Source of the DNA: Escherichia coli
GTDB taxonomy: Bacteria > Pseudomonadota > Gammaproteobacteria > Enterobacterales > Enterobacteriaceae
Assembly (NCBI RefSeq): GCF_041248615.1
Contig: NZ_CP158426.1
DNA: 64,000 nucleotides
Direction: 5' to 3' (one strand)
Every line of letters starts with the position of its first letter. Positions within the stretch are counted from its first letter, which is position 1. Under the pieces are notes generated by a model, which was given only the letters and a program-made list of their open reading frames with translations, had not been told where the DNA came from and did no database searches. A program made the translations under genes and the position numbers. This document shows, piece by piece, positions 3,761 to 52,654 of this stretch.

Positions 3761-4789
3761 ATGACTGATAACAATCAAAATAGCCGCGAGCAATTTTATC
3801 AGCATATTTCCGGGCAAAACCTGACCCCGCTGTGGGAGTCACTGCACCATCTGGTGCCAAAAACGCCCAACGCTAACTGTGCGCCAGCGTACTGGAATTA
3901 TCAGGAGATCCGCCCGCTGCTGCTGGAGAGCGGCAGCCTGATTGGCGCGAAAGAAGCCGTGCGCCGCGTGCTGGTGCTGGAAAACCCGGCGCTGCGCGGG
4001 CAGTCTTCCATCACCGCGACTTTATATGCCGGTTTGCAACTGATCATGCCGGGCGAAGTGGCACCGAGTCATCGCCATAACCAGTCGGCGCTGCGTTTTA
4101 TTGTTGAAGGTAAAGGGGCATTCACCGCCGTTGATGGCGAACGCACGCCAATGAATGAGGGCGATTTTATCCTGACTCCGCAGTGGCGCTGGCACGATCA
4201 CGGTAACCCTGGCGACGAACCGGTTATCTGGCTCGATGGGCTGGATCTGCCATTAGTGAACACTCTGGGCTGCGGTTTTGCCGAAGATTACCCGGAGGAG
4301 CAACAACCAGTAACGCGTAAAGAGGGCGATTACCTGCCGCGTTACGCTGCCAATATGTTGCCGCTGCGCCATCAGACCGGGAACTCCTCGCCCATCTTTA
4401 ACTACCGTTATGACCGTAGCCGCGAAGTGCTACACGATTTAACCCGCCTGGGCGATGCCGATGAGTGGGATGGCTACAAAATGCGCTACGTCAACCCGGT
4501 CACCGGTGGCTATCCGATGCCGTCGATGGGCGCTTTCCTGCAACTGCTGCCGAAAGGGTTTGCCTCACGCGTGGCGCGTACCACTGACAGCACCATCTAC
4601 CATGTAGTGGAAGGTAGCGGGCAGGTCACTATCGGCAATGAAACCTTCAGCTTTAGTGCAAAAGATATCTTCGTGGTGCCGACCTGGCACGGCGTGTCGT
4701 TCCAGACCACGCAAGATACCGTTTTATTTAGTTTTTCGGACAGACCGGTACAAGAAGCCCTGGGGCTGTTCCGCGAAGCGCGTTATTAA
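3761..4789 (+). CDS. mhbD: gentisate 1,2-dioxygenase (bicupin)
   Basis: 342 aa; cupin metal-binding His motifs ([11 protein letters not shown]...WHDHGN); operon context with fumarylpyruvate hydrolase and maleylpyruvate isomerase. Confidence 0.85.
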
Positions 4790-4804
4790 TTTGGGAGAGA
4801 GAAA

Positions 4805-5506
4805 ATGACTCAATACGTATTCGAACCACAAGCGCCCGTTACCGTACCGGTTGTTGGCAGTGATGAACAATTCCCCGTACGCCGCGTTTACTGCGTCGGA
4901 CGTAACTATGCCGCCCACGCCCGCGAAATGGGCTTTGATCCGGATCGTGAACCGCCATTCTTCTTCTGCAAACCGGCGGATGCCGTTGTTCCGGTTGCCG
5001 CTGGCGAAACGCTGGCGCTGCCGTATCCGGCGCAGACCGATAACTACCATTATGAAATTGAACTGGTGGTGGCGATTGGTAAAAAAGGCAGTGATATCCC
5101 GCTGGAAAACGCCCATGAATATGTCTGGGGTTATGCCACGGGTCTTGATATGACTCGCCGTGACCGTCAAATGGAAATGCGCCAGATGGGCCGCCCGTGG
5201 GAAATCGGCAAAGCGTTCGATCTCTCGGCCCCCATCGCGCCGCTGCACAAAGCCAGCGAAACTGGCGGTATTGATAACGCACCTATCTGGTTACAGGTTA
5301 ACGGCGAAGATCATCAGCGCAGCGATATTCGTCATCTCATCTGGTCAGTGAATGAAACCATCAGCTACCTGTCAGGCTTCTTTGAACTGCAACCGGGCGA
5401 TCTAATCTTTACCGGTACGCCGGAAGGGGTTGGCCCAGTAGTCAAAGGTGATGTGATCACGGGCAACGTCGAGGGCTTAACGCCTATCGCGGTGAAGATT
5501 GTCTGA
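4805..5506 (+). CDS. mhbH: fumarylpyruvate hydrolase (FAH family)
   Basis: 233 aa FAH-fold protein ([16 protein letters not shown]...GTPEGVG); position in gentisate operon. Confidence 0.8.
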
Positions 5507-12757: not shown

Positions 12758-12930
12758 AAAGTTCTTTTGTGTTGCATTGCTGGCGTAAATGTCAGCAATG
12801 CAGCATTTCCTCACGATTCTCCTTTGACGATCGCACTTTTTGCTCGTTATGATGGCGTCGCTAGCCTCAGTAAATCCTTACTCCGGCGGTGCGCAACCCG
12901 TGCGCGTGAACCACTATCTGAATGCTCATC

Positions 12931-32057: not shown

Positions 32058-33146
32058 TCACGGCAGGCGGTGGCGAGCTTGATAATAAGCCTGCCAGTGA
32101 GCTTCTTTATGTGTGGCGACGCGCTGTTCGAAGTAACGGCGCAGACGCGCGCGATCTTCTTCGTTATCTTTAACGATGGTTCCGGCAATACAGTCCACCA
32201 GGTCGGCAGGCTCCCCCGCGCGATTCGCTAAAAACCAGGCGCGGACGCCCACTGCGTGGGCCACGTTCACGGCTTCAGCGGTGGACATAATTGCCGTCAG
32301 GGTATCCATTGACGTTTTCTTTTCGCCGTTGGCACGCAGATCGCGGAAGGTGCGGACCAGTAACTCCAGTACCGCGTCAGGCACTTTATGCGGAATACCG
32401 CTATGGGCCAGCAAACGCGCCGAAGCACTGGCGACCAGTTCCAGCTCCTGGGCGAAATCCATAATCGGAAAGACGGTTTCAAAATCGAAGCGACGCTTTA
32501 GCGCGGCACTCATCTCATTGACGCCGCGATCGCGGGTATTGGCAGTGGCAATAATATTAAAGCCTTCCCGCGCATAGAGCTGACTGGCTTCACCGGTGAG
32601 TTCCGGCACCGTCATCACCCTGTCAGAAAGCATACCTAACAGACAGTCTTGTACTTCCAGCGGTGTACGTGTTATCTCTTCAAAACGGACGATTTTGCCG
32701 TCGCGCATTCCCTGGTAAAGCGGGGCAGGGACCAGTGCTTCCGTTGACGGACCATGGTTGATAAGCAGGGCGTAGTTCCAGCCGTACTTGATTTGATCTT
32801 CAGTAGTAGATGCGCCGCCCTGGATGGTTAACCCGGCATCGCCGCTAATAGCGGTTGCCAGTAATTCAGACAGGAGAGATTTTGCGGTGCCAGGTTCCCC
32901 CACCAACATCAAACCGCGCCCGGTGGCAAGAGTGACTAACATACGTTCGACAGCGGAGGGACTAATCACCACTTTACGGCTAATATTTTGCGCTCTATCG
33001 CCAAGGATAAAAGCACGGGCCGCAGGCAAACTTAACTGCCAACCGGGCGGGCAAGGTGCGTTATCATTTTGTTTTAATTTTGCCAGTTCATCGGCGTATA
33101 ACACAGCAGCAGGCGGACGCTGCAGATGATTATTCTGCGGTGACAT
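32058..33146 (-). CDS. yehL: MoxR-type AAA+ ATPase
   Basis: start set at MSPQNNHLQRPP giving 362 aa; Walker A LVGEPGTAKS; AAA+ sensor regions. Confidence 0.85.
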   Translation of the reverse strand: MSPQNNHLQRPPAAVLYADELAKLKQNDNAPCPPGWQLSLPAARAFILGDRAQNISRKVVISPSAVERMLVTLATGRGLMLVGEPGTAKSLLSELLATAISGDAGLTIQGGASTTEDQIKYGWNYALLINHGPSTEALVPAPLYQGMRDGKIVRFEEITRTPLEVQDCLLGMLSDRVMTVPELTGEASQLYAREGFNIIATANTRDRGVNEMSAALKRRFDFETVFPIMDFAQELELVASASARLLAHSGIPHKVPDAVLELLVRTFRDLRANGEKKTSMDTLTAIMSTAEAVNVAHAVGVRAWFLANRAGEPADLVDCIAGTIVKDNEEDRARLRRYFEQRVATHKEAHWQAYYQARHRLP

Positions 33147-33576
33147 ATATTCATCCCTGAAATGTATTAATGAAATAAACGATATTTTACGCGCAATAAA
33201 TGTTTGGCGCATTAGTTGTTTGAGCGAAAAATATCTGGAAAGCAGATCACAGTAAATAAAAAAACCTGCTGGTGAGGCAGGTTCTTTTATTTACTACAGT
33301 GACGCTAACTTGCTGATTGTGCAACATTTCGTACCAACGAATAAATTATAACCATATCCACACTCCATTGCAATTCAGTGAATGAGATTTATAATCCTGC
33401 CCGTTGGGAGGTTGTGCCGGATCGGACCAATTTTAAGTCCTGGCTGCTGGACGGGTGGTGCCGCAGGCGGTGCCCTGATCCGGAGAGCAACGTTTCGTAC
33501 CAACATACGTAAACCAGTATCGACAGGCAGTGTAAGGGTAAGGTGCTGGTGTTGCGCTCCTTAATAAGGAGAGCGG

Positions 33577-33666
33577 ATGGACACGCTGACACAAAAGTTA
33601 ACCGTGCTCATTGCTGTACTGGAGCTATTAGTGGCTCTGTTACGGTTGATTGATTTGTTGAAGTAA
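33577..33666 (+). CDS. candidate 29-aa hydrophobic peptide (type I toxin-like, DinQ-like composition); unannotated
   Basis: ATG with AAGGAG Shine-Dalgarno 5 nt upstream; translation MDTLTQKLTVLIAVLELLVALLRLIDLLK; SD lies in a CTCCT/AGGAG hairpin; terminator-like hairpin follows; below the ORF-track cutoff. Confidence 0.4.
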   Translation: MDTLTQKLTVLIAVLELLVALLRLIDLLK

Positions 33667-33687
33667 CGGGCAAATTGAAACGCATCT

Positions 33688-33719
33688 AAGGGGGAATACC
33701 GTTTCCCCCTTTAATAAAG
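33688..33719. terminator. hairpin terminator shared by the small ORF (+) and yehK (-)
   Basis: AAGGGGGAA-taccgtt-TCCCCCTT followed by TAATAAA. Confidence 0.5.
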
Positions 33720-34025
33720 CTATTTTTCTATTTGTTGGTTGAATATATTTTGTAGTTCGCGATTAAAAATTGCTATTACAGTTTCAGGTGATTCACCTCG
33801 TAATTTTCGCTCATCAATAAACTCATCTCTTATATAAATCAACGCATCATTTATTAGCGGGTCAGCATCATTAAATGTTGGACGTAGCCGGAATCGTTCC
33901 AGTCGATAGACGGAACCTGTAAATAATTCAGAGCGTTTATGGATCTCAAGCCTGAAGGAAAACGGCTCTTCAGGTACAGGGGCCTCATAATCGTAAATAG
34001 TGATCAGCTCTTTTTGCACGATCAT
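33720..34025 (-). CDS. yehK: uncharacterized small protein
   Basis: 101-aa ORF directly downstream of yehI on the same strand; matches recalled YehK. Confidence 0.7.
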   Translation of the reverse strand: MIVQKELITIYDYEAPVPEEPFSFRLEIHKRSELFTGSVYRLERFRLRPTFNDADPLINDALIYIRDEFIDERKLRGESPETVIAIFNRELQNIFNQQIEK

Positions 34026-34085
34026 CGCTTTTCCCGGTGGCAGGTCGTGTTAATAACGAGCAGTCGCATCACTGCCCGCTGTGTT

Positions 34086-37000
34086 TTAATGGAAAATGAC
34101 GTCGGGTGCGCTTAACGCCTCACTCAAATCAAACACATCAAGTTCGGCAAAAGTGACGGATTTATTCTCACGGTATACATGAAGAGAACGGAAGCTCATT
34201 AGCGCTTTGCTATCAACATTGTAGTGGTTAAAACCGGATGAAAACTTAAGGACCAGCCGGTACTCGCCCAAGTCATAGACAAATGCGTTCTCATAGCCTG
34301 ACTCCCAGCCTTTGTATCGCAATCCCATAAGTTGCCCAACGGTAGCAGATTTACCTTCCCAGCGATTCAAACTATTACTGGCTGACTCGTCAGGCGTGAG
34401 CAGCACCGTGCGGCGCGACAATTGGCGAAAAGGCGACATAATTTCGTAATCGGCAAAAAGCTGTGCAAATTCACTGCGCATTTCTGCTGTCATTTCTAAC
34501 GGGTGGGCAATGCCAATCAGAGCATCGGCAGGCAGGTCAATTGGCTCATCTTGCTCATTGCAGAACTCCCCCTCAGCGGCCACACGAAAGGCGTTGAGTA
34601 AACAACGCGGTTCATTTGCCGGATAAACACCCCATATCAATCGCTGAGTAACCAGGCGGGTAAAGGGATGATTAATAAACAGAGAATGAAAATCTGCCAG
34701 CGACCAGCGTCGGGTGGTGCGCAGGGCAGTTTCAAGACGCGGGAGCAGGTTTTTGCTCACCTGAGTAGCATCTTTTTTTAGCCCTTTTAGTCGGGCCAGT
34801 GCCTCGGGTGCTTTCAGTTGATCGTCATCGGCGCGCAACCGGGGAACGCTTTTCTGGCGAACGTTTTGCTGATCAAAGATAACCGGGTTGAGGTTTTCAT
34901 CGAAGCGAACGGTAAATTGCCGTGGACCAAAATCAAAAATCAACGCCTGCGGATCATCAAGACCCAGTGTTGGGACTAATCTGTCCGCTAACTGTTCCTG
35001 GCTTAGCCCGCGATTTTCTGCGACCACCTGAAGAAATTCCGCCGCGTTATCACGTAAGGGGCGGGATTTCGCCCGTTGCGATATATGATGCAGCTGCATC
35101 AGCGCCATATCATTATTCATCAGGGTAAGGATGTTCAGGCCACTGACAGCACGGGCAGATTTGCCTTCTTGTGGCCAGGCGAGGATCTGTGTCGTTAGAT
35201 CCCGTGTCGTGCTTTCGTCACCAAAGAGACTTAACGCCAGAAATGCCCAGTTGTCTTTTGCGGGGGCACCAGCTTGTTGCCACGCAGTGAAGAGATCCCA
35301 GGCAAAAGCTGCCAGCGTTTGTGGCTGGCAGAACGTTTTCAGTTGTTCCAGCCCGCTATAAAAACGTCCGCCTTGGGTAAAGCGCAGCATTTCGCCGATA
35401 ATTTCCAGAGCGTCATCGGTAACAGGCTGATTATTTGTGATAAGGCGCGGCCTGGACCGCATTTGCGGCTGCCAGAAATCAGGGGCTTTTGGAATGCGTG
35501 TCGGGTAAATCTCTATTGGACTCTGTTTAAGTAATTGCTCCAGGGCAGGCCATACATCTGTACGCTGCCAGCGGTTTGCCACGGTTTGCAGTAACTCGCC
35601 ATGTCCCTGTTCGTAAAGTAAACGCAGGGCAAGTAATGCAGCTTCGCTATTATCGCTGGATTTGGTGAAGACAAGAGGGATAAGTGCAGTAGCTGTATGT
35701 TCCGGCCAATGTAAAATCCACTGGCGAGCCAGATCACGCTGCGCCGCGAAACGTCGCCAGACGCGGGCAACGGGCAGGGCCAGTTCTGTTGCGCCAAAAT
35801 TTAAAATTAACGGAAATGTTTCTTTTGGACGATGTGAAAAAGCCAACAGCAGACCTGGTAGAGCATCCAATCCGAAGATACTGAGAAAATAGTCCTCACC
35901 CGCAGACAGATGCTTTTTCTCATTGATACGTAGCCAGAAAGTCAAAGCCATCTCACGCGGCAACTGCGCCAATAAATACAGGTTCCAGATACTCTTTTCC
36001 CGACGATAGCGTGAGTAGCTGTCATTTTCCCATATGTTAATGAACACTTCTACGTGACCGTTGCGAAGCGCCTGTTCTGCTAATTGAGCTTCCGGGGAGC
36101 TCCAGCCATTCATGATCTCTTCAACCCGCCCTGGGTAGTAATGCCACTGAACAATGAGTGAATTGCGTGCAGCATCCAGTTTTCCGGGGAGTATATAATT
36201 CAAAAACAGCCATACATCATCTCCAAAACCCAGCTCCTGTAATACAACTCGTCCACTTTTTTGTTCCATGCGTTCCGCAAGAGATTCCGTGCTGAAATAA
36301 CGGGCAGACTCAGTGGCGGCAAGCCTCTCTTGTTCGCCTGGTTGCCAGTAAACTTGCGGGGTTAATTCGAGCGGTGCCAAATCAAGACGTGGAGCTGTCA
36401 TTTTTTTCTTACTACGCCACGGTGGTGAAACGAGGATTTCAGGCAGATTGCTGTTATCGGTGCCATCAATAACCGGTTTGGGCGGTGCCGATAAATAACT
36501 ATTCAGCACTGCCCGGGCTTGAGTACTTAACCACGGCATCACTTCTGCTGCCAGTTGTGGCTGCGATGCCATCAGCGTTTGTAACAGCGTACGCCAGTAT
36601 TCATCACGTGCTTTTTGCTGTGCAGGCAGCTTTTTGTCTTCGATGATTGGATAACCAGGGCGCGTAGGTGGTTCTTTTAGCGCCAGCAGTTCTGCCAGTG
36701 CGGCAAGCGTCGCATGGGGGAAATTTTTACTGTATTTAGCTACACGTTGCAGGCTGGGTTTGTTTTTATCAGCAACTAACAGCAGGGTGCGGATGACCTG
36801 CGGATGGTTAATTTGTACCAGCAGACTGCCGCAATCTTCTTTATGGGCATACATTGCCAGGCGTGGAACGGCTGCCAGTCCTTGTTCGCGCAAAAGGGCA
36901 GCGCAGGCCGCGTAGCCGAAGTGGTTTTCATGCGACATGTAGCTGGCTTCCCGATCGCTAAATATATCCTGGCTCCAGTAGCGTTCGAGTTTTCTCACCG

Positions 37001-52519: not shown

Positions 52520-52600
52520 AACCAAACGACTCGGGGTGCCCTTCTGCGTGAAGGCTGAGAAATACCCGTATCACCTGATCTGGATAATGCCAGCGTAGGT
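52520..52600 (+). ncRNA. TPP riboswitch aptamer (thi-box) of the thiM leader
   Basis: AACCAAACGACTCGGGGTGCCCTTCTGCGTGAAGGCTGAGAAATACCCGTATCACCTGATCTGGATAATGCCAGCGTAGG matches the recalled E. coli thiM TPP aptamer; similarity ends at about 52600. Confidence 0.85.
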
Positions 52601-52654
52601 TGCCAACATTCTGATTAGTATTCATGTGGTTACATTTCTTTTTGTCCGTGTGTA

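Follow-up and report, generated by a model that had tools for sequence, protein, structure and literature searches.

A putative zorO–orzO toxin–antitoxin module in single copy between yehL and yehK of Escherichia coli

A small toxin gene and its leader

The interval between yehL and yehK in the E. coli contig NZ_CP158426.1 was analysed within a window of 64,000 nucleotides, the whole stretch of DNA considered here. Taking the RefSeq start of yehL (window position 33146), the gap measures 573 bp, in keeping with the roughly 570 bp given by a first-pass annotation made from the sequence alone. On its plus strand lies a reading frame of 29 codons plus stop (33577–33666; stop codon 33664–33666), whose product, MDTLTQKLTVLIAVLELLVALLRLIDLLK, has a core rich in leucine, isoleucine and valine. 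The first-pass annotation had picked out this hydrophobic frame behind an AAGGAG motif and suggested a translationally silenced type I membrane toxin. That suggestion is borne out: the peptide is identical at 29 of 29 residues to the published inner-membrane toxin ZorO of O157:H7 (PMC6669753, section 4.3), and an OrzO-P RNA gene is predicted on the opposite strand.

The Shine–Dalgarno motif (AAGGAG, 33566–33571) is separated from the ATG by 5 nt and is covered by a predicted plus-strand hairpin at 33552–33576, built on an inverted repeat (GCGCTCCTTA/TAAGGAGAGC) at 33554–33574. Folded alone, this sequence forms a CUCCUU-AAU-AAGGAG stem-loop of −10.6 kcal/mol (z = −2.2), and the ribosome binding site (RBS) has an unpaired probability of 0.07–0.08 in folds of the full-length mRNA and of its processed form, delta-28, alike. 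The early claim that the Shine–Dalgarno sequence is paired in a hairpin is thus upheld, and structure probing has placed the zorO RBS within a stem (PMC5397157). The hairpin sequence is the same in nine of ten zor copies, the tenth carrying a single changed base outside the Shine–Dalgarno motif.

Upstream of the frame, a promoter scan identified TTGCAA, a 16-nt spacer and TATAAT (the latter at 33390–33395, plus strand) with 10 of 12 consensus matches. When the published 174-nt length of the zorO 5′ UTR is counted back from the ATG, the leader occupies 33403–33576 and its +1 falls 7 nt downstream of the TATAAT, as promoter geometry requires. The published RBS position, +164 to +169 (PMC5397157), coincides exactly with the AAGGAG of the window, and the same holds for every other published landmark: the promoters, the 174-nt UTR and the region termed EAP (exposed after processing). 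This region, +73 to +102, corresponds to 33475–33504 on the plus strand and has been proposed as a ribosome standby site (PMC5397157); it contains an RBS-like GGAGAG at 33482–33487, a motif described as conserved in PMC11264685. For the genes of EDL933, translation is inhibited by the full-length leader but proceeds from the delta-28 form, which lacks the first 28 nt (it would start at 33431 in the window) and exposes the EAP. In our folds the mean unpaired probability of the EAP rises from 0.31 in the full-length RNA to 0.42 in delta-28, a modest predicted opening that fits the published probing with lead and RNase T1 without amounting to independent confirmation.

Downstream of zorO, between the convergent zorO and yehK, is a plus-strand hairpin with G5/C5 arms (33688–33711; AAGGGGGAA/TTCCCCCTT; −16 kcal/mol, z = −3.3), which is conserved among the O and P copies and is probably the 3′ end of the zorO transcript. 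The first-pass annotation had called it a terminator. The hairpin itself is real, but the T-tract behind it (TTTAATAAAG) is weak and short, and for this reason the hairpin was passed over by a consensus terminator scan.

The reading frames flanking the gap are yehL and an allele of yehK, and the chromosomal site agrees with that published for the zor–orz genes (PMC2887945). The yehK homologue (33720–34025, minus strand) encodes 101 amino acids; compared with the 105-aa YehK found in an O157-like strain, it shows 87% identity and a 5-residue deletion. In ST2747 RefSeq calls the 101-aa allele a ‘hypothetical protein’, and other strains have a yehK that carries a frameshift or is longer (354 nt); these deletions, frameshifts and length changes make the gene adjoining the toxin locus unusually variable. 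Pseudogenes were also seen within the yeh cluster, namely yehM with an internal stop in strain 131 and yehI in ZF31 (positions 1–710 of locus L001, from NZ_CP028644.1, and 3989–5498 of locus L003, from NZ_CP047455.1).

An antisense RNA and its pairing site

The minus strand upstream of zorO matches the OrzO-P family of Rfam (RF02083) at 33258–33331 over the full model (1–76), with 88.8 bits against a gathering score of 60 and E = 1.6e-14. In a 2-kb scan in E-value mode (32500–34500) this was the sole match above threshold, and models for IstR and AgrB were absent among the six matches listed. Weak plus-strand matches to OrzO-P, STnc370 and Trp_leader (33175–33342), considered as separate RNAs, stayed under the gathering score; the palindrome of the orzO terminator, described below, accounts for them. 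An Rfam scan of the whole 64-kb window revealed neither a second zor/orz unit nor any other OrzO-like RNA. Elsewhere in the window, the Peptidase-S11 RNA motif (RF03039) matches at 12846–12926 on the plus strand (72.8 bits, gathering score 34.8), where it is presumably the cis-regulatory leader of a D-alanyl-D-alanine carboxypeptidase gene, and a TPP riboswitch (RF00059) at 52522–52617, also on the plus strand, barely passes its threshold (58 bits, gathering score 54.3).

The putative orzO gene, placed at 33256–33338 (minus strand) by promoter geometry at its 5′ end and by the U-tract of a terminator at its 3′ end, would give an RNA of about 83 nt. It is divergent from zorO and 65 bp upstream of it. 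Published Orz sRNAs are about 85 nt long, are likewise divergent and are complementary to a site 72–92 nt upstream of the toxin start codon (PMC2887945). The predicted promoter consists of TTGCAA, a 17-nt spacer and TATAAT (33345–33350, minus strand; 10 of 12 matches), hexamers identical to those listed for orz in Table 3 of PMC11264685. The sRNA folds at −23 kcal/mol (z = −3.3), and its predicted intrinsic terminator hairpin (33263–33283, minus strand, an inverted repeat) forms the core of a palindrome at 33251–33295 with 19-nt arms that are 95% complementary and flanked by A-runs and T-runs on both sides. The palindrome resembles an intrinsic terminator on either strand, and the scan had called it on the plus strand; the consensus structure of RF02083 has a U-run after its 3′ stem-loop.

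Both promoter calls use the same six base pairs. The palindromic TTGCAA at 33368–33373 is the predicted −35 element of zorO on the plus strand and of orzO on the minus strand, and each zor/orz copy has a single TTGCAA. The arrangement ATTATA-N17-TTGCAA-N16-TATAAT was found in 11 zor/orz units at seven loci, one of them orz-only, these units having been captured by a regular expression built on that very pattern, which recovered two of the three copies of L003.

The first-pass annotation had reported a 12-bp direct repeat at 33317 and 33493 and wondered whether it marked a duplicated regulatory or antisense element. The repeat exists and is longer than reported: 18 nt, identical at 17 of 18 positions, with copies at 33321–33338 (GCAACATTTCGTACCAAC) and 33487–33504 (GCAACGTTTCGTACCAAC). 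The second position given for the 12-mer (TTTCGTACCAAC) was correct, whereas its first copy begins at 33327, 10 nt from the position reported. In 64 kb the 18-mer has these two sites only, against an expectation of 0.00 from 100 shuffles. Since the minus-strand TTGCAA-17-nt-TATAAT puts the OrzO 5′ end near 33338, the first 18 nt of the sRNA, its putative seed (GUUGGUACGAAAUGUUGC; 33321–33338, minus strand), are the reverse complement of the first repeat copy. The second copy lies on the plus strand within the zorO 5′ UTR, 73–90 nt upstream of the ATG, where it closes the EAP. Because the two copies are transcribed in opposite directions, the RNAs should form an 18-bp duplex, which comprises 17 Watson–Crick pairs and one G·U, without mismatch. 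According to PMC11264685, pairing requires an unbroken run of 15 pairs, or 17 with a single mismatch, and the duplex in the window lies within this rule; mutational and lead-probing evidence for Orz–zor pairing has also been published. The antisense half of the earlier suggestion therefore stands and the duplicated regulatory element does not: as predicted from these features, the repeat is the seed of a trans-pairing sRNA and its mRNA target, read from opposite strands.

Variation among E. coli genomes and alternative readings

A 507-bp intergenic query was compared by BLAST with 5426 complete E. coli genomes. Matches were found in 5206, of which 3393 cover at least 80% of the query, and in the remaining matching genomes the coverage is mainly of the orz half. 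These figures agree with a published census in which 25% of genomes have one copy, 42% have two and about 30% are orz-only; one pair alone, as here, is the arrangement in about one E. coli genome in four. ST2747 has the same intergenic sequence (100% identity), and that of an O157-like strain is 98.4% identical over 97% of the query. At the O157-like locus L001, two units lie in a gap of 1.24 kb: the one nearer yehL encodes ZorP (T3S) and the one nearer yehK encodes ZorO. Across 480 aligned columns (33240–33719), the window differs from the yehK-proximal zorO–orzO of L001 by a few single-base substitutions and no indels, two of the differences from the O157-like strain being synonymous changes in the zorO frame. 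Related strains carry two to four tandem zor–orz copies, and in a K-12-like locus (L002) an orzP-type sRNA is retained alone.

By seed and target, the 11 units (seven loci) sort into three types: O, P and a third. Between a cognate Orz seed and zor target, 17–18 of 18 positions pair; non-cognate arms have 3–4 mismatches and no run longer than 8. The third type was found in L003 and L005 (NZ_CM163382.1), in the yehK-proximal unit, with the orz arm GCAACATGGCATCTCAAC and the zor arm GCAACATGGCGACTCAAC. It is probably the published zorQ–orzQ, for which PMC11264685 states an A20S variant of the toxin; in L003 and L005 the toxin peptide is identical to ZorO and does not have A20S.

How far could so small a frame, with its hairpins and its repeat, have arisen by coincidence in a non-coding spacer? 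Many frames of 20–60 codons fill the yehL–yehK gap on both strands, and RefSeq annotates nothing there. Against this, the encoded peptide is that of ZorO, which has been shown by experiment to be translated, toxic and localised to the membrane; the chance expectation of the repeat and the E value of the Rfam match are those given above. The frame is also conserved as a coding sequence, as the first-pass annotation had expected of a genuine gene: ten copies form four alleles that differ by three synonymous changes and one conservative change (T3S), and Table 3 of PMC11264685 records the 29-aa frame as kept in 99.5% of 2,439 loci. A chance origin, to which we attach virtually no probability, is refuted by the match to ZorO at every residue and by published evidence of translation and toxicity. 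Equally negligible, in our view, is the prospect that the repeat is a scar, left by tandem duplication of zorP/zorO or by recombination from two units to one, with no function in RNA–RNA pairing. The presence of two to four tandem copies in relatives and one in the window does indicate that copy number has changed here by recombination. However, in every unit examined, tandem loci included, both repeat copies lie inside the single unit, one in orz and one in the zor UTR, and the two arms change together across the three types while remaining complementary, which is the signature of a selected RNA–RNA interaction and, with the published pairing experiments, leads us to reject a scar.

A third alternative accepts a genuine zorO–orzO copy but regards it as silent, or decaying in this strain towards the orz-only state of K-12-like genomes. 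About 30% of E. coli have no zor and only orz left, and the window strain has lost, or never had, a zorP–orzP unit. We nevertheless consider silence or decay very improbable, given that the promoters, RBS, 29-codon frame, seed and target, and terminal hairpins are all intact and of consensus form, and that the sequence has the full identity to ST2747, and the near identity to a functional O157-type copy, reported above. [quoted passage not shown] Every feature of the zor–orz family that can be sought in a sequence is found at this locus, and in general terms it combines a small, predicted hydrophobic toxin with a putative base-pairing antisense RNA from the same locus, as type I systems do.

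Proposed mechanism, related modules and implications

On this zorO–orzO reading, a zorO mRNA with a 174-nt leader would start at 33403 and run rightward, and we propose that a local hairpin, by trapping the Shine–Dalgarno sequence, keeps translation of this primary transcript poor. Once the first 28 nt had been removed, the EAP would open as a standby or loading site for the ribosome, allowing the 29-aa ZorO to be made, inserted into the inner membrane and to cause depolarisation and a growth stop. OrzO, made leftward from about 33338 as an sRNA of some 83 nt, would block the standby site and set off RNase III-dependent decay of the zorO mRNA. Our own computations show the identity of the sequences, the match to Rfam, where the landmarks fall, that the two RNAs can pair, that their arms covary and that the RBS is sequestered in folds. 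For toxicity, location in the membrane, processing and the dependence on RNase III but not on Hfq we rely on published work with the EDL933 locus, which is identical or nearly so. There, overproduction of ZorO arrests growth and OrzO rescues it; RNase III is required for repression, Hfq is dispensable, and the first 18 nt of the sRNA suffice (PMC3919570); ZorO was found in, and depolarises, the inner membrane (PMC6669753). The peptide, seed and target of the EDL933 genes tested are identical to those of the window. We infer that both genes are expressed in the window strain, and the same mechanism would apply in it because every element is intact and of consensus form.

In EDL933, z3289 and z3290 sit between yehI and yehL, and z3289/sRNA-1 is zorO–orzO (PMC2887945). 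That locus and the window share the toxin, the OrzO-P sRNA, the promoter hexamers, the 174-nt UTR, the RBS hairpin, the EAP, the seed and target and the yehL–yehK/yehI site, and differ in that zorP–orzP adjoins the pair in EDL933, whereas the pair in the window stands alone. The zorP–orzP and third-type units have the same architecture, Rfam family, UTR length and RBS hairpin, with a toxin identical or one residue off, but differ at 5–7 positions in the central part of seed and target (the V1 region). These V1 differences leave window OrzO with four mismatches against those targets, which would account for the published target discrimination.

A wider likeness is to tisB–istR1 (PMC5397157). 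There too a divergent sRNA is complementary over about 20 nt to a site far upstream of a sequestered RBS, the primary transcript is inactive until its 5′ end is processed, the sRNA blocks a standby site, and the toxin is a small inner-membrane peptide that causes depolarisation. The two differ in locus and probably in gene family. Expression of tisB is under LexA/SOS control. Both shoB–ohsC and dinQ–agrB resemble the window locus in that the toxin is small and hydrophobic, the 5′ UTR is long, structured and in need of processing, and the sRNA acts in trans through a short seed; the peptides and loci are different, and the overlap of agrB with dinQ is of another kind. About 113 nt of the zor 5′ UTR have nevertheless been described as 71–74% identical to a plasmid dinQ-like leader (PMC11264685). 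By analogy, zorO–orzO resembles tisB–istR1 and shoB–ohsC in its presumed mechanism and is probably a member of neither family, and its likeness to tisB–istR1 and dinQ–agrB is similarly mechanistic and does not indicate membership.

The locus is already known. The first-pass annotation described it as unannotated, which is true of automatic RefSeq annotation (zorO and orzO are annotated in none of the seven RefSeq records examined) and not of the literature, where the discovery was published in 2010 (PMC2887945); its correct reading rediscovers that locus, and novelty is accordingly absent. Little new biology is added, as the action of the toxin, the seed rules of the sRNA and the processing of the 5′ UTR with its standby site have previously been dissected. 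As to a physiological role, effects of multi-copy zor–orz on aminoglycoside tolerance have been reported. For the present strain, the analysis shows a single-copy configuration, with one zorO–orzO pair between yehL and yehK and no adjacent zorP–orzP unit. The shared −35 hexamer, on which the searched parts of the zor–orz literature (PMC11264685, PMC3919570) contain no discussion, prompts one further, tentative suggestion. If sigma-70 region 4 can bind TTGCAA in only one orientation at any moment, the toxin and antitoxin promoters of a given locus would be unable to initiate together. We think this rather unlikely; if true, the shared element would add a transcriptional toggle above the known post-transcriptional control of the zor–orz toxins.
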